Shown here piece by piece: positions 1 through 5,854 of a stretch of DNA of 5,854 bases. Every line of letters begins with the position of its first letter. The stretch's first letter is position 1. The translations under genes and the position numbers were made by a program. Origin of the DNA: Candidatus Woesearchaeota archaeon. Lineage in GTDB: Archaea > Nanobdellota > Nanobdellia > Nanobdellales > Nanobdellaceae. The stretch covers positions 1 through 5,854 of the forward strand of contig CAYXSZ010000018.1 of NCBI GenBank assembly GCA_964468425.1. Direction: 5' to 3'. The notes below the pieces were generated by a model. The model did not search any database. It was not told where the DNA came from and saw only the letters and a program-made list of their open reading frames with translations.

Positions 1-2
1 GT

Positions 3-404
3 ATTACCGAAGATTATGAAATATTTGTTGAGTTCAGTAAGAGTACGGGAAGAGCTAGGAGAGTTTACGTTAATGGTGAGCTTTTTGGAACTATCGATCC
101 TAGTACGGGTTTCATAATCCTTTCCTACCGCGGAGCGGAGATTGTAAAAGGTTACTTGGATTTTCCGAAATATAGAGTTGTTATAGCCGAAGAAGCCGTT
201 CCATTTGTTGAAATTGGAAAGTCTGTGTTTAATAAGTTTGTACTTGAATGCGATCCCGAAATTCTTCCCAAGGATGTTGTTTTGATAGTCGACAAAAAGG
301 ATGAACTCATCGCTACGGGAGTTGCAGTTCTTTCTGGAAGAGAGATGCTAGAATTCGATGTAGGGATTGCTGTTAAGGTAAAACATGCTAGAAAAAATCG
401 TTAA
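3..404 (+). CDS. PUA-domain protein, C-terminal part (archaeosine tRNA-guanine transglycosylase / ArcS-type C-terminus); 5' end lies outside the window
   Basis: Frame 3 is open from base 3 to the TAA at 402-404. I translated 3-155 by hand (ITEDYEIFVEFSKSTGRARRVYVNGELFGTIDPSTGFIILSYRGAEIVKGY) and found no stop, so the TTG at 156 in the ORF track is an internal codon. The last ~75 aa (YRVVIAEEAVPFVEIGKSVFNKFV...DELIATGVAVLSGREMLEFDVGIAVKV) follow the classic PUA pattern found at the C-terminus of archaeal ArcTGT/ArcS proteins. Confidence 0.85.
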   Translation: MTEDYEIFVEFSKSTGRARRVYVNGELFGTIDPSTGFIILSYRGAEIVKGYLDFPKYRVVIAEEAVPFVEIGKSVFNKFVLECDPEILPKDVVLIVDKKDELIATGVAVLSGREMLEFDVGIAVKVKHARKNR

Positions 405-924
405 GGTTAGGGGAAAAACAAAGTTTGAGAAGAAAATTATTCGCACCGCTATCTTTGTCTGGAACTTAGTTTTGTATTCTGTTCCGCTTAACCTGTTTGA
501 ATTCAAAATAATTCCAGTACCGCAGTTCGTGTTAGATACTCTATCAAGTCTGGAAACCGCTTTGCTGAATTCTGTAGGAATCGCCGCGAATCTGACAGGA
601 AACACAATCTACGCGTGTGGAGCAAGCTTTACAATAGCTCCAGAGTGTTCTGGATATAAATCTCTGTTAGGATTGTTTGCAATTGTTATGGCAACACCCA
701 CAAAGGATTTAAGAAATAGAGTCAAATGGTTTTTATACTTATCTCCGATTACGATCGCTTTGAACTTTTTAAGAATCTTTAGCACCGTACTGTTGCACTG
801 TTCGCTAAACATAGATATAGAGTTTGTCCATAACGTTCTGTGGCAAATTTTAACAACTCTAGCGGTGTTTTTCCTGTGGTTGTTCTTTTTAATCAAAAAC
901 AGGCAAAATCTCATAGAGTTTTGA
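385..924 (+). CDS. Archaeosortase/exosortase-family integral membrane protein, minimal-size form (ArtE-like size class; subfamily not assignable by eye)
   Basis: 179 aa with about 5 hydrophobic helices. The family signature TIAPECSGYKSL has its Cys88 codon at 646-648. A second signature, ALNFLRIF, has its Arg130 codon at 772-774. A conserved-looking His sits in FVHNVLW. An SD-like AAGGT at 375-379 lies 5 nt before the ATG. The ATG lies inside the last 20 nt of the PUA gene, which suggests translational coupling. Confidence 0.8.
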   Translation: MLEKIVKVRGKTKFEKKIIRTAIFVWNLVLYSVPLNLFEFKIIPVPQFVLDTLSSLETALLNSVGIAANLTGNTIYACGASFTIAPECSGYKSLLGLFAIVMATPTKDLRNRVKWFLYLSPITIALNFLRIFSTVLLHCSLNIDIEFVHNVLWQILTTLAVFFLWLFFLIKNRQNLIEF

Positions 925-1162
925 CTTCGCTTAAGAGATTTCTCAGCTTTTTAAAAGTTTGCTCGTCTAATTTTTCTACAAAAATAACCCGCTTTTCCTC
1001 GACATACATTCTAACAAAATCTCCCTCGGAAATGCCAGATCCTGTATAGATAAAAGTCCTAGAGCCCTTTTCAGTAGCAATGGTTAAGTATTTATCAGAG
1101 ACCTCGACTACTCTCCCGTAAAGAACTCCCTCTTTAGATACGTCCTCAAAGGATTCGAACAT
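911..1162 (-). CDS. Small hypothetical protein (83 aa), possibly OB-fold-like
   Basis: ATG-initiated ORF with hyperthermophile-type composition. The pattern GRVVEVSDKYLTIATEKGSRTFIYTG...GDFVRMYV...VIFVEKL alternates like a small beta-barrel followed by a C-terminal helix. A TATA-like box lies about 26 nt upstream on the minus strand. No diagnostic catalytic motif was found. Confidence 0.6.
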   Translation of the reverse strand: MFESFEDVSKEGVLYGRVVEVSDKYLTIATEKGSRTFIYTGSGISEGDFVRMYVEEKRVIFVEKLDEQTFKKLRNLLSEVKTL

Positions 1163-1183
1163 TTTTAGCCTTTGTAAATAAAT

Positions 1184-1191
1184 CTTAAATA
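1184..1191 (-). promoter_or_regulatory. Putative archaeal TATA box for the 911-1162 minus-strand gene (leaderless transcript)
   Basis: The minus strand reads TATTTAAG at -29 to -22 relative to the ATG, whose complement is at 1160-1162. This is the spacing expected if transcription starts at or next to the start codon. Confidence 0.4.
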
Positions 1192-1241
1192 GTGAGGAAG
1201 TCGCGCCGCTGCGGAACAGTGAAGAGACTACTGGGGACTGA
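1192..1241 (+). ncRNA. Candidate C/D-box sRNA (2'-O-methylation guide), boxes partly degenerate
   Basis: Layout: GTGAGGA (1192-1198, C-like), 10-nt spacer, CTGC (1209-1212, D'-like), 7 nt, TGAAGA (1220-1225, C'-like), an exact 12-nt spacer GACTACTGGGGA (1226-1237), then CTGA (1238-1241, D box). The element lies in a locally GC-rich island within an otherwise AT-rich intergenic region. Both C-type boxes deviate from RUGAUGA at the same U position and D' is imperfect. Confidence 0.3.
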
Positions 1242-1297
1242 ATCCAGGTTCTATCTCGCTAACGCTGTTATTCTCCCAAAATCGTCGAATAGCAAGG

Positions 1298-1305
1298 TTT
1301 AAAAA
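1298..1305 (+). promoter_or_regulatory. Putative archaeal TATA box for the AbrB-ABC cassette (leaderless transcript)
   Basis: TTTAAAAA at 1298-1305 is centred about 26 nt upstream of the ATG at 1327 and is preceded by a purine-rich BRE-like AGCAAGG. There is no SD between it and the ATG, consistent with a leaderless first gene of an operon. Confidence 0.45.
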
Positions 1306-1326
1306 CATTCCAACTTTCTTACTAGT

Positions 1327-1614
1327 ATGACATTCAAGGTAGTAAGAATTTCCAGCAAAGGACAACTAGTCATCCCGCAAGAGATAAGAGACAGAATGCA
1401 AATCAAGGAAGGAGACAACTTCATCATATTCACGGTCTCCGACGATGTGCTTGTTCTTAGAAAAATTGTCTTCAGCGACGAGAATTACAAAACATTCAAG
1501 AAAAAGTTCATCGAAGCCTTGAAGGAACTGAACGTCGAAATCAGCGAGGATCTCTTAGACAAGGCGTTTGATCTAATGATCAAAAAGTGTATCAATGAAA
1601 GTGATAACGCTTAG
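1327..1614 (+). CDS. AbrB/MazE/SpoVT-family (swapped-hairpin) DNA-binding domain protein with a helical C-terminal extension
   Basis: The N-terminus VRISSKGQLVIPQEIRDRMQIKEGDNFIIF...VLVLRK matches the SpoVT-AbrB domain pattern (s-s-k-G-q-h-h-I-P-k-e-I-R-x-x-h-x-I-k-e-G-D). The C-terminal ~48 aa are charged and helical. The gene's last 20 nt overlap the start of the ATPase gene. Confidence 0.85.
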   Translation: MTFKVVRISSKGQLVIPQEIRDRMQIKEGDNFIIFTVSDDVLVLRKIVFSDENYKTFKKKFIEALKELNVEISEDLLDKAFDLMIKKCINESDNA

Positions 1615-2305
1615 GGACGTGACAAAGATTTATAGGTTGGGAAAAACAGACTTTAAAGCGTTGGATGGAATTTCGCTAGAAATTCGAAAAGGAGAATTCA
1701 TATCAATTATGGGACCTTCCGGTTCGGGAAAGTCCACGTTACTTCACATTATGGGCTGTCTAGACAGACCAACTTCGGGAGAGGTTTACGTTCTTGGAAA
1801 GGATGTCAGAAAACTTAGCGACAACGAATTAGCTAATTTAAGAAACCGTAAAATTGGCTTCGTATTCCAGCTATATTACCTTCTTCCGAACTTGACGGCA
1901 TTGGAAAACGTAGAAGTTCCGATGATCTTCGCAGGGCTTCCTAAAGAAAAGAGAGTCAAAAGGGCTATGCAGCTGCTAAAGCTTGTCGGAGTGGACGATG
2001 TACATGATCACAAGCCAGTAGAACTTTCTGGAGGGCAGAGGCAGAGAGTAGCGATTGCAAGAGCCCTCGCTAACGATCCAGAGATTATCTTAGCAGACGA
2101 GCCTACGGGAGCTCTGGACATAGAGTCTGCAGAAGTTGTAATGAACATCTTCAAAAAGCTAAATAAAGAGGGAAAAACTGTGGTGATAATCACCCACGAT
2201 CCAAAGGTGGCGGCGTACGCGGAGAGAATAGTGGTTATCAAGGGTGGTAAGATTGTAGCAGATGGCGTAAACATTGATGAAGCGACTGAAATTTTAAAGA
2301 AATAA
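1595..2305 (+). CDS. ABC transporter ATP-binding protein, MacB/LolD-type (COG1136-like)
   Basis: Walker A is GPSGSGKST and the Q-loop is FVFQ. The ABC signature is LSGGQRQRVAIARAL, Walker B is IILADEPTGALD and the H-loop is IITHD. The N-terminus (DVTKIYRLGKTDFKALDGISLEIRKGEF) is typical of the MacB/LolD/FtsE-like clade. Confidence 0.97.
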   Translation: MKVITLRDVTKIYRLGKTDFKALDGISLEIRKGEFISIMGPSGSGKSTLLHIMGCLDRPTSGEVYVLGKDVRKLSDNELANLRNRKIGFVFQLYYLLPNLTALENVEVPMIFAGLPKEKRVKRAMQLLKLVGVDDVHDHKPVELSGGQRQRVAIARALANDPEIILADEPTGALDIESAEVVMNIFKKLNKEGKTVVIITHDPKVAAYAERIVVIKGGKIVADGVNIDEATEILKK

Positions 2306-2306
2306 A

Positions 2307-3770
2307 ATGGTTCGAAGGTTCGCTTCTTTCTTAATTCTACTAGCACTTCCAACCGTATTTTCTACTCCGATCATAGATGTAGCAAAAACCTACTCAATAC
2401 CAAAGGTTCTAGAACCAAATACCAAAGCAACTGTGTTCGTAGCGATTACAAACCCATATAATTATACATTGTCTTATGTTGAAGTAAAGTTTGACAGCAA
2501 CGAACGCGTAAAGATTGTATCCGACGACGAATGGGATTTGGGAACGATCCATCCTCACGAGTTCCGGTTTGTTCCCCTAGAAGTCTCGATAGGAAATTGC
2601 AGGAATTCCGTTCAAACTGTTCACGCGGAGATCGAGTACTACTCTCCGTTCGGTTACGAGGATGTAGACGAATACCTTCCATTAATAATTACAAGCGTTC
2701 CTAGGCTGGAAATAGCAAAGGTATACACCATTCCCGATCATCCAAGAACATTTGATAAAGCAAAGTTATGCATAACGCTTGCGAACAACGGATCTTCTGA
2801 ACTAAAGAATATAAATGTCGTAATACTGGGTTCGAGGTGTTTGTTAGTCTTATCTCCTAACTTAAGGATAATAAATAAACTAAAGCCGGGAGAAACCAAA
2901 ACAATTACATATGAAATAAAAACTACGAACATTCCTTGTCAAGTTCCAGTAAGAATACTTTATACAGATTGGGCGGGAAATTCTTATAACGTTACTGAAT
3001 CTATTGGGCTAGACGTGTCTCAGAGTCTCGGCACGGTTTCTATAAAGAATTTAACTTACGAAAATGCGATCGCTGGAGAGAACAACCATGTTTTGTTAAG
3101 GATTGTAAACGAAGGGAATAGAGAAATCAAGAATATCATAGTCAAAATAGCCAGCGATCCCAGATCTCCACTAAGTTTTAGCCCGCAAGAATTCTTTATA
3201 GAAAAGCTGAACCCGTATATGTACAAAACAATAGACCTATCAGTCTACGCCAATCCAGACGCAGAGGGTGTTTACAAAACGCCAATACTTGTAAGATATA
3301 GCATAGATTCGGGAAAGTTCGTAAATGATAGCTTCGTTTTAACTATAAAGGTCTCTAGGAAGCCCAGTCTATTAGTTTATGTGAGTTCCATAGAGAAAAA
3401 TCAGATAGACTTAGCTATAGCGAATGTGGGAAGCGTTAAAGCTAGAAACGTGTACGTAACACTACGAGATGGAAATTGCTATCAAGTAAAAGAAAAATCT
3501 ATCGAATTCATAGGAGATCTCGATAGCGGAGATTACGATACAGCGAGCTTCGAGGTGGAACCCACGGCGAGTTCGTGCAAACTGAAAGGTATAGTTTACT
3601 ATCAAGACGCTTTAGGACGCAACTACACGCAAGGCTTCGAGATCCCAATTAAGTTTCCAAAAGAGGAAGCTACTCGAAGTTCTAGTACACTCTACATAAT
3701 TGGAGCTCTCCTGATCTTTGTTGGAACGATTTACTACTTCTTGGTGAAAAGAAAACAAAATGCTGAGTGA
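2307..3770 (+). CDS. Secreted, C-terminally membrane-anchored surface protein with four CARDB/COG1361-like beta-sandwich repeats
   Basis: The N-terminal signal peptide is MVRRFASFLILLALPTVFS (2307-2363). Four ~100-115-aa repeats occupy about aa 20-130, 131-237, 238-351 and 352-450. Each shows the pattern h-x-h ... h-x-h-x-h-x-N-x-G ... h-x-N-h-x-V-x-h, for example LCITLANNGSSELKNINVVI, LLRIVNEGNREIKNIIVKI and DLAIANVGSVKARNVYVTL. There are six N-x-S/T sequons (N52, N161, N228, N248, N340, N439). The C-terminus reads TRSSST + LYIIGALLIFVGTIYYFLV + KRKQNAE. The gene starts 1 nt after the ATPase stop and overlaps the permease start by 11 nt. Confidence 0.85.
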   Translation: MVRRFASFLILLALPTVFSTPIIDVAKTYSIPKVLEPNTKATVFVAITNPYNYTLSYVEVKFDSNERVKIVSDDEWDLGTIHPHEFRFVPLEVSIGNCRNSVQTVHAEIEYYSPFGYEDVDEYLPLIITSVPRLEIAKVYTIPDHPRTFDKAKLCITLANNGSSELKNINVVILGSRCLLVLSPNLRIINKLKPGETKTITYEIKTTNIPCQVPVRILYTDWAGNSYNVTESIGLDVSQSLGTVSIKNLTYENAIAGENNHVLLRIVNEGNREIKNIIVKIASDPRSPLSFSPQEFFIEKLNPYMYKTIDLSVYANPDAEGVYKTPILVRYSIDSGKFVNDSFVLTIKVSRKPSLLVYVSSIEKNQIDLAIANVGSVKARNVYVTLRDGNCYQVKEKSIEFIGDLDSGDYDTASFEVEPTASSCKLKGIVYYQDALGRNYTQGFEIPIKFPKEEATRSSSTLYIIGALLIFVGTIYYFLVKRKQNAE

Positions 3771-4941
3771 TCTTCTTTTTTTAGCATTCAAGAACCTTCA
3801 GAGAAGAAAGCTAAGAGCTTGGTTGACGACTCTTGGCGTGGTAATAGGAATTTCTTCGGTGGTGTCTTTAATTACAATTGGAACTGGAATGGAAAAAGCT
3901 ATAGAAGAATCGTTTTCTAAAATGGGAAAAGATAAATTGATGATTTTTCCAGGAAAGCTAGCTGGGTCTGTACCTGGAACTCTTTTCATGGGTAAACCGT
4001 TCACCATCGAAGACGCTGAAAAAATAGAGAAGCTTCCAGACGTGAAATTTGCAGTTCCCATAGTATTCACAGTTAGCACTGCTATGTACAAGGGAGAGAG
4101 CTATCCAGTCGTGATATTTGGACTCCCACCTGAGAAGGTGAGTAAAATGGGCGGAATTGGCTACAGCTTATACGCTGGAAGATTTCTAAGAAAAGGAGAT
4201 AAGTATTCCTGCATTGTAGGTTACAAGCTAGCAAGGGATGTATTTTCTGAGAACATGAAACCCGGGAGCAAGCTTAAGATCGGTGAAGTCTCTTGCAAGG
4301 TTGTAGGAATCTGGGAGCCAACCGGATCGAGCACAGAAGACTACGCAGTTTATCTGCCGATAAATGTCCTAAAAGAAGATTTTCACATAGATGAAGTTAG
4401 AGTTATAGTTGCTCAAGCAAAGGACGTTGACAAAGCCATTACGGAGATCAAAAAATACTTGAAAAGAAAGAGGGGAGAAGACTTTAGTATCATGACCGCG
4501 GGACAGGTTTTATCTCAAGCTAAAATGATTTTAGGCATAGTTTCTTTAGTAGTGGTGGTAATTGCAGGAATTTCGCTGATAGTTTCCGCAATCGGAATTA
4601 TGAATACGATGTACATGGCAGTTACGGAAAGAACTAAAGAAATTGGTATAATGAAAGCGATCGGAGCCAAAAACAAAGATATTCTCCTGATTTTTCTCTT
4701 TGAGTCGGGCTTACTTGGAATGATTGGTGGAATCGTTGGAAACGTTTTAGGACTAGCAGGAGCGCTTCTAATTGAGAAGATCGCTGTTTCGAATGGTTAC
4801 TATCTCTTCAGAGCATATGTAGATCCTTTCGTGATAATTGGGACGATCTTATTTGCGTCTCTAATCGGAGTCATTTCTGGGCTCGCTCCAGCTAGAGCAG
4901 CTTCAAAGCTCGATCCAGTTGATGCTCTGAGAGAGGAATAA
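3760..4941 (+). CDS. ABC transporter permease, MacB/FtsX family (COG0577-like), 4-TM with a large extracytoplasmic domain
   Basis: The N-terminus LAFKNLQRRKLRAWLTTLGVVIGISSVV is the canonical MacB/FtsX-type permease start. It continues into TM1, a ~210-aa extracytoplasmic domain and three C-terminal TM helices. The FtsX-domain pattern is MNTMYMAVTERTKEIGIMKAIGAKNKDILLIFLFESGLLGMIGG, and the protein ends APARAASKLDPVDALR. Confidence 0.95.
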   Translation: MLSDLLFLAFKNLQRRKLRAWLTTLGVVIGISSVVSLITIGTGMEKAIEESFSKMGKDKLMIFPGKLAGSVPGTLFMGKPFTIEDAEKIEKLPDVKFAVPIVFTVSTAMYKGESYPVVIFGLPPEKVSKMGGIGYSLYAGRFLRKGDKYSCIVGYKLARDVFSENMKPGSKLKIGEVSCKVVGIWEPTGSSTEDYAVYLPINVLKEDFHIDEVRVIVAQAKDVDKAITEIKKYLKRKRGEDFSIMTAGQVLSQAKMILGIVSLVVVVIAGISLIVSAIGIMNTMYMAVTERTKEIGIMKAIGAKNKDILLIFLFESGLLGMIGGIVGNVLGLAGALLIEKIAVSNGYYLFRAYVDPFVIIGTILFASLIGVISGLAPARAASKLDPVDALREE

Positions 4942-4946
4942 TTTTT
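4942..4946 (+). terminator. Oligo-T tract directly after the permease stop (archaeal-type terminator candidate)
   Basis: TTTTT follows the TAA at 4939-4941 immediately, and a second T-run (TTGTTTTT) lies at about 5006-5013. Archaeal RNA polymerase terminates at oligo-T tracts. Confidence 0.4.
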
Positions 4947-5187
4947 AATAAGCCTTGTTTCTATACTTCTCAAGGAATTCTTCTATATCATCTTTGAATA
5001 GTATCTTGTTTTTAACTAAATGCTCTGCAAGAGGTTTCACATAGTACCTAACAATGTTGCGAGAGGAGATTAGATATAAGTTAATAAAAAATACTACGAT
5101 GCTTAAAATGACAGATGTCTTTAGATTTTTGTAAAAGCTACTGAATTTAGAGATTCAAGAGCATAAAAGGATTTAATTTTTTTTAAA
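4945..5187 (-). pseudogene. 80-codon stop-free minus-strand frame lacking a canonical start: decayed gene or small membrane protein with a non-canonical start
   Basis: Hand translation of the minus strand gives FKKIKSFYALESLNSVAFYKNLKTSVILSIVVFFINLYLISSRNIVRYYVKPLAEHLVKNKILFKDDIEEFLEKYRNKAY, with its stop complementing 4945-4947. An upstream in-frame stop complements 5188-5190. The only ATG/GTG/TTG in frame is the GTG at 5038-5040, which would leave 31 aa. The sequence has a clear TM-like segment (SVILSIVVFFINLYLISS) and a charged helical tail. Confidence 0.3.
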
Positions 5188-5189
5188 TC

Positions 5190-5708
5190 ATGAAAACATC
5201 GTATAGTATGGCTCGATATAAAATAAAGTCTGGAGGATGCTATTATATTTCGGGAGAAAGTATAGATTGTGTTTTTAATAGAGTTTTATCTATTTTAAGA
5301 TCCTTTTCCAAAGAAAGAACAAAAATTGCGGTAAACGACAGCAAATTTTGTGAAATTCTTTTTGAAGCAAACACCCTAACAGAACTTGGGGCAGCAACTT
5401 ATTATCTAACTGGTGAAACATTGCATTTTATTAATATGGACAGTAGCTTGGATAAAATTGAGTTTATAGAGCCACCTAGATCTAGTTTAGATGAAGTGGT
5501 GATTAAAGCTGTAGAAAGAGTTCTCGTACATAGAGAACATTCGTATATATTTGTAGATGTAAGCTATGGATCTTTTAACGTAAAGTTAAAACATCATAGT
5601 GACAAATACGTTGCGGGTTTTGATAAAAGGGCTGTATTTCTTAAAAAAGAGATTTATCGGGTAATGAGAGCTTTATCCAAAGCGGGAGGATGGGTTCCTA
5701 CATATTAA
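5190..5708 (+). CDS. Hypothetical protein (172 aa), no recognisable family; low-GC orphan
   Basis: ATG-initiated ORF with a second in-frame ATG at codon 7. An A/T-rich TATA-like stretch (CATAAAAG, about 5162-5169) lies about 25 nt upstream. The predicted protein is soluble and I can identify no catalytic or nucleotide-binding motif with confidence. Confidence 0.55.
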   Translation: MKTSYSMARYKIKSGGCYYISGESIDCVFNRVLSILRSFSKERTKIAVNDSKFCEILFEANTLTELGAATYYLTGETLHFINMDSSLDKIEFIEPPRSSLDEVVIKAVERVLVHREHSYIFVDVSYGSFNVKLKHHSDKYVAGFDKRAVFLKKEIYRVMRALSKAGGWVPTY

Positions 5709-5721
5709 CGAGAAATACAAA

Positions 5722-5854
5722 TCATTTTCTTCTGGCTCGCAAAATGTAAGCTTTAATGAACTCTCTTTCCTTTTCGTGAAAGAAATAGAGCTTTCCAAGC
5801 TTAAACTTAGTCTCGCAAAGAACTAGAATTTCAAAGTTCTTTAAATAATGCTTA
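5722..5854 (-). CDS. 3' end of a minus-strand gene running out of the window (hypothetical)
   Basis: The minus-strand frame is open from the window edge to the stop complementing 5722-5724. Hand translation gives ...KHYLKNFEILVLCETKFKLGKLYFFHEKEREFIKAYILRARRK. It is the only minus frame in 5725-5854 without stops. It converges on the 172-aa ORF with a 13-nt gap. Confidence 0.35.
   Translation of the reverse strand, partial: KHYLKNFEILVLCETKFKLGKLYFFHEKEREFIKAYILRARRK

Follow-up and report, generated by a model that had tools for sequence, protein, structure and literature searches.

An archaeal MacB-type transporter operon encodes an immunoglobulin-like repeat surface protein that may serve in place of a membrane fusion protein

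A 5,854-nucleotide (nt) stretch of DNA from Candidatus Woesearchaeota archaeon (assembly GCA_964468425.1, contig CAYXSZ010000018.1, positions 1 to 5,854; the whole stretch is referred to here as the window) carries an operon for a MacB-type ATP-binding cassette (ABC) transporter in which a surface protein with immunoglobulin (Ig)-like repeats, called Mid here, is encoded between the ATPase and the permease. The listing of open reading frames (ORFs) placed four consecutive genes on the forward strand, at positions 1327-1614, 1595-2305, 2307-3770, and 3760-4941, with products of 95, 236, 487, and 393 amino acids (aa), respectively. The successive junctions, checked on the sequence, are -20, +1, and -11 nt. 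The abrB-like gene and the ATPase gene overlap by 20 nt, the TAA stop codon of the ATPase gene (2303-2305) is followed by one spacer base and then by the Mid ATG at 2307, and the permease gene starts, with its ATG at 3760, within the last 11 nt of the Mid gene, which ends in TGA at 3768-3770. An earlier sequence-only reading of this DNA, made by a model without database searches, had described four same-strand genes packed into one compact unit with these junctions, and the ORF coordinates and spacings were exactly as it claimed. The four genes form one compact operon.

Signals at the two ends of the operon are consistent with a single transcript. A TATA-like box, TTTAAAAA (1298-1305, forward strand), lies approximately 25 nt 5' of the abrB ATG and is the sole TATA-like match on the forward strand from position 1100 to 5241. 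Its spacing from the first ATG suggests a leaderless-type transcript, and the whole module would be transcribed from this one putative promoter, with its genes translationally coupled. Oligo-T tracts are able to terminate archaeal transcription, and a T5 tract on the forward strand directly 3' of the permease stop codon (4942-4946) is a candidate archaeal terminator. The sequence-only reading had counted one oligo-T tract among its arguments for a single unit. That argument is weaker than stated, since three more runs of at least five Ts lie inside the unit (a T7 run at 3776-3782 and further runs at 3944-3948 and 4691-4695), which is about chance level (3 observed versus 3.3 in shuffled sequences). 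The T7 run falls on the forward strand directly 3' of the Mid stop codon, within permease codons 6 to 8; it could attenuate expression of the permease but, equally, may be mere coding sequence (LLFL). Scans for bacterial sigma-70 promoters and hairpin terminators returned chance-level results only and are irrelevant for an archaeon.

The first gene of the operon (1327-1614, forward strand) encodes an AbrB/SpoVT (MazE-fold) DNA-binding protein of 95 aa, presumably the operon regulator. Residues 5 to 47 matched both PF04014 (2.3e-9; 37.5 bits, cutoff 24.7) and TIGR01439 (1e-12; 47.6 bits, cutoff 28.3), placing an N-terminal swapped-hairpin (looped-hinge helix) domain of the AbrB/SpoVT kind in this protein, and the MazE/antitoxin equivalog models scored far below their cutoffs. 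A toxin-antitoxin (MazE/VapB) assignment of this gene was considered and rejected, since no toxin gene is present and the overlapping downstream gene encodes an ABC ATPase.

The second and fourth genes encode the transporter proper. The 236-aa ATPase (1595-2305, forward strand; ABC_tran, 3.3e-35) belongs to the MacB/LolD/FtsE clade, with MacB (8e-84) and LolD (5e-77) as its best NCBIfam models, and retains all expected motifs: Walker A (residue 40), LSGGQ (144), Walker B (IILADE, 164), and H-loop (199). The 393-aa permease (3760-4941, forward strand) contains a MacB_PCD domain (PF12704, 1.3e-30, residues 21 to 232) and an FtsX domain (PF02687, 1e-24, residues 267 to 386). Its predicted topology is one transmembrane (TM) segment (residues 22 to 40), an extracytoplasmic domain of approximately 215 aa, and then TM2 to TM4 (257 to 275, approximately 308 to 338, and 357 to 375). 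The pair thus has the two features of a type VII ABC system, namely, an intact nucleotide-binding domain (NBD) of the MacB/LolD/FtsE clade and a four-TM permease whose TM1 and TM2 are separated by a large extracytoplasmic domain. Searched against Protein Data Bank (PDB) sequences, the permease matched MacB (5gko, 8e-46) over residues 2 to 392, with further matches to Streptococcus pneumoniae Spr0695 (5xu1, 3e-32) and Bacillus subtilis YtrF. MacB was also its best NCBIfam model (1e-43), and no equivalog-level match was found to FtsX (39 to 43 bits versus cutoffs of 225 to 255) or LolC/E (lolCE, 85 versus 362); both the ATPase and the permease scored far below the MacB equivalog cutoff (966 bits). 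The nearest genome-resolved relatives of the permease come from Woesearchaeota, Methanosarcinales, and a metagenome-assembled genome (MAG) labeled only "archaeon." By profile comparison, then, the transporter is of the MacB type. A PADLOC run on the window returned generic ABC and LolE-TM matches only and none for Mid or AbrB.

Mid (2307-3770, forward strand) is a COG1361-family surface protein of 487 aa, recognized from a match to CARDB (PF07705, 1.2e-9), its AlphaFold2 (AF2) model, and a family search. It consists of a predicted signal peptide (aa 1 to 22), four Ig-like/CARDB-type beta-sandwich domains, and a C-terminal TM anchor (approximately 459 to 481), with a short tail after the TM helix, KRKQNAE, assigned to the cytoplasm; the hydrophobic segments themselves span residues 5 to 23, which are signal peptide like, and 462 to 480. 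Built on a 117-sequence alignment, the AF2 model reached a pLDDT of 80.5 and delimited the domains D1 (approximately 36 to 128, modeled at low confidence), D2 (132 to 236), D3 (243 to 350), and D4 (354 to 450), followed by a helix at 459 to 486, whereas a single-sequence model was unusable (pLDDT 40.5). Comparison of the repeats gave similarity z-scores of 18 for D2-D4, 7 for D2-D3, 4.2 for D3-D4, and 3.3 for D1-D3, by which the domains are detectably related to each other. The model, these scores, and the hydrophobic segments together bear out the earlier description of a signal-peptide-bearing, C-terminally anchored protein of four beta-sandwich repeats, just as Pfam and NCBIfam profile searches support the AbrB, ATPase, repeat protein, and permease identities assigned in it. 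Foldseek comparison with the PDB returned only generic tandem Ig, ASH, and MG arrays (ciliary hydin-like proteins, integrin alpha legs, and alpha2-macroglobulins), and no PDB chain was related to the Mid family by sequence.

The window is 99.45% identical to a contig from a hydrothermal-vent metagenome (L001; L numbers denote the loci compared). In that contig (3379-3401), a cysteine codon replaces the Mid TGA stop, so that Mid is 7 residues longer (494 aa, ending in NAECSSFFSI) and overlaps the permease gene by 32 nt. An archaeosortase-like gene lies upstream of the operon, and Mid was considered as its substrate. This was rejected: no sorting-domain model matched at E of ≤0.01, the family consensus holds no conserved motif before the TM segment, and the sortase neighbor is not conserved.

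Mid belongs to a large and divergent family. Scanned in full with HMMER, 1.84 billion cluster representatives yielded 5,417 relatives at E of ≤1e-3, 610 of them at E of ≤1e-30. Word-index searches with Mid and with a three-sequence profile had returned only three matches each, the family being too divergent for them, and it was the HMMER scan, together with a profile of the 400-aa class, that recovered what they missed. Members range from 274 to 1,264 aa, most of them near 400 aa, and 139 of the 153 sequences examined have both N- and C-terminal hydrophobic segments. Mid is a COG1361/CARDB-repeat surface protein by its sequence, signal peptide, Ig-like repeats, and C-terminal TM segment with basic tail. 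The core of the family corresponds to D2 to D4 of the window protein plus the TM segment; D1 is present in 24% of aligned members. Information content climbs toward the membrane (1.66 bits in D2, 1.88 in D3, and 1.99 in D4; 1.67 in the TM segment). Since conservation rises toward the membrane and the distal D1 is optional, this pattern is compatible with an interface between Mid and the permease. Eight long members (974 to 1,264 aa) contained no fusion of Mid to a permease or an ATPase, only extra CARDB, DUF11, and NEW3 repeats. Source organisms include Woesearchaeota, Nanoarchaeota, Aenigmatarchaeota, and Micrarchaeota; one MAG is labeled Alphaproteobacteria, and its locus has the layout PadR-ATPase-Mid-permease-permease as well. 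In source records the members are named "hypothetical protein" or, by NCBI, "COG1361 S-layer family protein." The "S-layer family" name is a prediction only, and we know of no COG1361 member that has been shown experimentally to form an S-layer.

The association of Mid with the transporter genes is conserved. Mid stood beside them in all six of the first archaeal loci. In a metagenome scan that was seeded only with a Mid-family motif, and in which ORFs were labeled by Mid, ATPase, and permease hidden Markov models (HMMs), an ATPase gene, a permease gene, or both adjoined Mid on the same strand in 71 of 80 loci, as they did in 12 of 12 other distinct loci. With A, M, and P denoting ATPase, Mid, and permease, the orders among the 71 were A-M-P-P (22 loci), A-M-P (19), M-P(-P) (12), and A-M (7), with P(-P)-M(-M) (6), A-P-P-M (3), M-A-P (1), and M-A-M-P (1) being rarer. 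Seven further loci were all A-Mid-P(-P) or Mid-x-P-A and included Mid forms of 937, 1,134, and 1,229 aa; long and short forms alike lie between ATPase and permease, with overlapping junctions. Because these loci mostly show the A-M-P(-P) order, the order found in the window is canonical. Nine of the 80 loci have neither transporter gene next to Mid, and six of these are contigs of less than 3 kb (1,059 to 2,901 bp) in which Mid is flanked, on one side or both, by no more than approximately 300 bp; in another (L159), Mid runs off the contig end, and the remaining two are L143 and L148. Nearly all loci have a single Mid gene per transporter module, and two are present in 5 of the 80. Some loci (L153, L154, L155, L140, and L143) carry two tandem short Mid paralogues of approximately 300 aa, which follow the transporter genes instead of lying between them (P-P-M-M or P-M-M), except in L143, where no transporter gene was found near the pair. 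Overall, the ATPase/Mid/permease association is conserved across about a hundred loci. The sequence-only reading had stated that it would be refuted if the repeat protein proved not to be conserved next to the transporter genes in relatives; this neighborhood check was run and did not refute it.

This linkage bears on whether Mid might simply be a structural protein of the S-layer or envelope that is co-transcribed with an unrelated ABC exporter. The NCBI family name points that way, as do at least one stand-alone Mid gene (L148) and a weak match of Mid to the model of a putative Pacearchaeota S-layer protein (NF033506, 3.6e-6; 25.9 bits, far below the cutoff of 110). However, Mid adjoins transporter genes in 71 of the 80 loci and in all 12 others, usually in overlapping or nearly abutting frames and between the ATPase and the permease, and one-to-one operonic linkage to a transporter is not expected of a major S-layer protein. 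Given these linkage statistics, we consider mere co-transcription very improbable.

Bacterial relatives of the transporter provided a control. A permease-seeded genome scan yielded 80 loci, of which 77 were bacterial MacB homologues, and these were used to examine the slot of the membrane fusion protein (MFP). In the bacterial loci the order is X-ATPase-permease, and where an upstream ORF was present, X was an HlyD/MFP adaptor in 61 of 68 cases, candidate phyla radiation (CPR) bacteria and Chloroflexota included. An MFP HMM built from the 68 bacterial neighbors gave no match in the Mid-containing loci searched (L001 to L006 and L084 to L167) and 84 matches in bacterial loci; conversely, the Mid HMM gave none in the 77 bacterial loci. 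The hallmark of a MacAB-like tripartite pump, an HlyD/MFP adaptor encoded with the transporter, is thus missing from the Mid loci searched. Across 170 loci, closely related ATPase-permease pairs never carry Mid and MFP together; as accessory genes, the two are mutually exclusive. The sequence-only reading had placed the repeat protein in the adaptor slot of MacAB-type systems. What stands of that proposal is that Mid takes the accessory-gene role that the MFP has in bacteria, and the mutual exclusion is its strongest support, though the operon position and the fold differ.

The surroundings of the module offer some indication of function. Among 38 ORFs found 5' of the ATPase at Mid loci, 8 encode PadR and 4 encode MarR regulators, and PadR/MarR regulators recur in L086, L168, L171, and L173, in the slot that the AbrB gene has in the window; the gene in this position is often translationally coupled to the ATPase gene. 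In L170, an AbrB/MazE-fold gene lies two genes upstream. In two loci of one lineage (L084, 7197-7838; L085, 1653-2294), Mid is separated from the permease by a gene for an SdpI/DUF1648-family membrane protein (order, Mid-SdpI-permease-ATPase). In Bacillus, proteins of the SdpI family function in immunity to peptide toxins and in signaling. A MatE pump gene lies directly downstream of the module in three loci. Genes downstream are otherwise heterogeneous and unrelated, so the module ends at the permease.

Taken together, we interpret the operon, with moderate confidence, as an archaeal extrusion system of the MacB type that is inducible and uses the Ig-repeat protein Mid as a nonhomologous replacement for the MFP in the role of accessory subunit. 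Its most likely job would be the inducible removal of membrane-active toxic compounds, such as antimicrobial peptides or other amphiphiles. The resistance-type role is suggested by the PadR/MarR regulators, the SdpI-family gene, and the MatE pumps, and there is a precedent in monoderm MacAB-like pumps, which depend on accessory proteins and make cells resistant to peptides or antibiotics. Mechanistically, the operon would be kept repressed by the upstream regulator until the cell meets stress. Mid would be an obligate, stoichiometric extracytoplasmic subunit, tethered next to the permease dimer by its C-terminal helix. The TM helix and the conserved domains nearest the membrane would contact the permease or its extracytoplasmic domain, and the distal Ig repeats, which vary in number, would extend into the region below the S-layer. 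Movement of the permease powered by ATP (mechanotransmission) may then expel substrates from the outer face of the membrane along or through the Mid assembly, analogous to the role of MacA, YknX, or Spr0693 in bacteria.

Several observations weigh against this interpretation of the operon as an extrusion system. Mid does not have the MFP fold: it is all beta and Ig-like, without alpha-hairpin, lipoyl, or beta-barrel domains, and the Foldseek comparison with the PDB gave no match resembling a membrane fusion protein. Its anchor is a C-terminal rather than an N-terminal helix, and the gene order is A-Mid-P in archaea versus MFP-A-P in bacteria. The linkage also has exceptions. In L148, Mid is clearly solitary, with approximately 4.9 kb on both sides free of transporter genes; in L143, two adjacent Mid genes have no transporter gene within 3.7 kb upstream and 0.9 kb downstream; and L090 and L108 are A-Mid loci without a recognizable permease. 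Finally, the regulator and neighbor context is circumstantial, the type of regulator varies between loci, and AbrB occupies the slot 5' of the ATPase only in the window and L001.

How Mid has changed at corresponding positions in different genomes bears on two further alternatives. In syntenic loci with the arrangement Thy1 - VTT/DedA - [PadR] - ATPase - Mid - permease, Mid measures 573, 634, and 937 aa (L086, L002, and L168, respectively). Since its length shifts at an orthologous locus while the flanking genes stay constant, the Ig-repeat copy number changes quickly. Between L086 and L168, identity is 83% for the ATPase, 65% for the permease, and 45% for Mid, and across the syntenic loci the ATPase is likewise the most conserved of the three, the permease intermediate, and Mid the least. 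By these comparisons Mid is a fast-evolving, repeat-number-variable component that is probably exposed. The DedA/VTT-family membrane protein gene is a recurrent divergent neighbor of the module, and another lies downstream in L089.

One alternative is that the ATPase and permease act as an FtsEX-like motor that transports no substrate, with Mid as its client or effector. ATP would be spent on changing the conformation of Mid, which could switch adhesion, cell-cell contact, or S-layer attachment or remodel the envelope; in essence, this is the variant of the sequence-only reading in which the module acts on a surface protein. MacB-family members such as FtsEX do drive extracytoplasmic partners (EnvC, PcsB, and CwlO) and transport nothing. 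The tight linkage of the Mid and permease genes would suit such a motor, as would the rapid divergence and variable repeat number of Mid at syntenic loci, which are those of exposed adhesins, and the CARDB ("cell adhesion related") type of its domains. We nevertheless regard this as rather unlikely, given that the enzymatic or coiled-coil domains used by FtsX partners are absent from Mid, that the FtsX-specific NCBIfam models fall far below cutoff with MacB as the best model, and that PadR/MarR regulators, an SdpI-family gene, and adjacent MatE pumps fit detoxification better than morphogenesis.

Alternatively, Mid may be a surface-tethered binding or immunity protein that captures a peptide toxin or other ligand and either hands it to the exporter or sequesters it, with no duct being formed. 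LanI lipoproteins cooperate with LanFEG transporters, although the latter belong to another ABC type. Ig-like arrays are typical binding modules, MG-domain proteins (alpha2-macroglobulin) were among the fold matches, fast evolution and variation in repeat number fit the tracking of variable ligands, and one lineage has the SdpI-family, immunity-type gene inside the module. However, conservation in Mid is highest in the membrane-proximal domains and TM segment, not in the distal and presumably ligand-exposed ones, and the presence, in nearly all loci, of one Mid gene per module at fixed operon positions suggests a subunit. This explanation therefore appears quite doubtful.

A more specific form of the extrusion system that we favor is also conceivable, although we advance it only tentatively. 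Several copies of a COG1361 Ig-repeat protein might surround the permease dimer and form a conduit or stalk, tunable in length through the number of repeats, that crosses the pseudo-periplasm as far as the S-layer and replaces the MFP in archaea without being homologous to it.

The remainder of the window holds several further features. A gene on the forward strand at 385-924 encodes an archaeosortase/exosortase-family protein of 179 aa (TIGR04178, 2.8e-13), with weak matches to ArtD/E/F, XrtH, and pacearchaeosortase models. It has no counterpart in L002 to L006 and is probably an unrelated neighbor of Mid. A PUA-domain gene also lies upstream of the operon. Upstream of the operon promoter, intergenic positions 1188-1243 (forward strand) represent a probable archaeal C/D-box small RNA (sRNA), recognized from a weak Rfam match to sR9 (RF01312; 25.8 bits versus a gathering threshold of 36, E of 0.049) and by eye from a C box (GTGAGGA), a C' box (GTGAAGA), a D box (CTGA), and guides of approximately 12 nt. 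A "terminator-like" hairpin at 1231-1247 falls within this candidate. The archaeosortase-family and PUA-domain genes, the sRNA candidate, and the nearest relatives of the permease all speak for an archaeal origin of the window. ORFs at 5190-5708 (forward strand, 172 aa) and 911-1162 (reverse strand, 83 aa) gave no significant match in Pfam, NCBIfam, or PADLOC; the 83-aa ORF has only a faint match to the MM0924 family and is convergent with the archaeosortase-like gene, whose 3' end it overlaps. No tRNA was found in the window.

To our knowledge, understanding of MacB-type ABC systems is confined to bacteria, in which a partner protein (MacA, LolA, EnvC, or YknX) always relays the output. The present analysis ties a very large archaeal family, named by prediction only, to archaeal MacB-type motors and finds that it excludes MFP adaptors, and so offers a testable hypothesis for the role of thousands of "COG1361 S-layer family" genes. 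The hypothesis extends to how archaea may expel membrane-active toxins across an envelope of membrane plus S-layer and to the nonhomologous replacement of an accessory subunit. It also supplies an annotation rule, regulator-ATPase-Mid-permease, for archaeal genomes, especially those of DPANN and uncultured lineages. If the conduit or stalk arrangement were true, the thousands of clusters now misfiled as "S-layer family protein" would represent an unrecognized, archaea-wide class of trans-envelope mechanotransmission machine.

Comparison with known systems places the operon among MacB-type transporters that work with partner proteins. FtsEX (with EnvC, PcsB, or CwlO) and LolCDE (with LolA) are MacB-superfamily motors that act on an extracytoplasmic partner via the periplasmic domain; unlike those partners, Mid has no coiled-coil, hydrolase, or LolA-like fold. 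As a type VII ABC transporter, Escherichia coli MacAB-TolC shares the NBD and permease families of the window, but in the window system the NBD and permease are separate polypeptides rather than fused, and MacA, TolC, and an outer membrane are lacking. The closest characterized analogues are the monoderm MacAB-like pumps YknWXYZ of B. subtilis and Bacillus amyloliquefaciens and Spr0693-0694-0695 of S. pneumoniae. They, too, have a separate MacB/LolD-clade ATPase, a four-TM permease with a large extracytoplasmic domain, and, in a cell with a single membrane, one membrane-anchored extracytoplasmic accessory protein encoded in the operon. YknYZ is active only when both YknX, an MFP, and YknW, a Yip1-family protein, are present, and YknWXYZ protects against the SDP peptide (PMC4887032), while Spr0693-0695 confers resistance to antibiotics and antimicrobial peptides (PMC5768738). 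The difference lies in the accessory protein, which in the window consists of Ig-like domains strung together and anchored at the C terminus and in the bacterial pumps is an HlyD/MFP protein with an N-terminal anchor, encoded in the order MFP-A-P.

The pairing of transporter and surface protein has been noted before in archaea. SalXY-type ABC transporters and "S-layer proteins" occur around arCOG01996/arCOG02054 in Methanococcales, Archaeoglobi, and Thermococci, and a role in defense or membrane remodeling has been proposed for these loci (PMC4158269, PMC5898192). In some loci that have been described, a Yip1-family protein and a SalXY-type ABC transporter occur together with "S-layer proteins" (PMC5898192, section 3.3), so that related archaeal loci sometimes include a Yip1-family protein, as YknWXYZ does with YknW (PMC5898192). 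The loci of Makarova et al. probably contain the same pairing as the window, which itself lacks the arCOG01996/Yip1 cassette. Their account is a passing mention of the neighborhood that neither defines the triad nor links it to MFP replacement and reports no experiments. Our searches of the literature on MJ0795/MJ0797, archaeal mechanotransmission, and COG1361 turned up neither a functional study nor any paper that defines or tests an ATPase/Mid/permease triad. The novelty implied in the sequence-only reading was somewhat overstated in that the family is already named and the pairing had been remarked on by Makarova et al. The parts of the cassette belong to known families and their pairing is visible in databases, and the cassette as a whole is a widespread, uncharacterized archaeal variant of MacB-type multicomponent systems.

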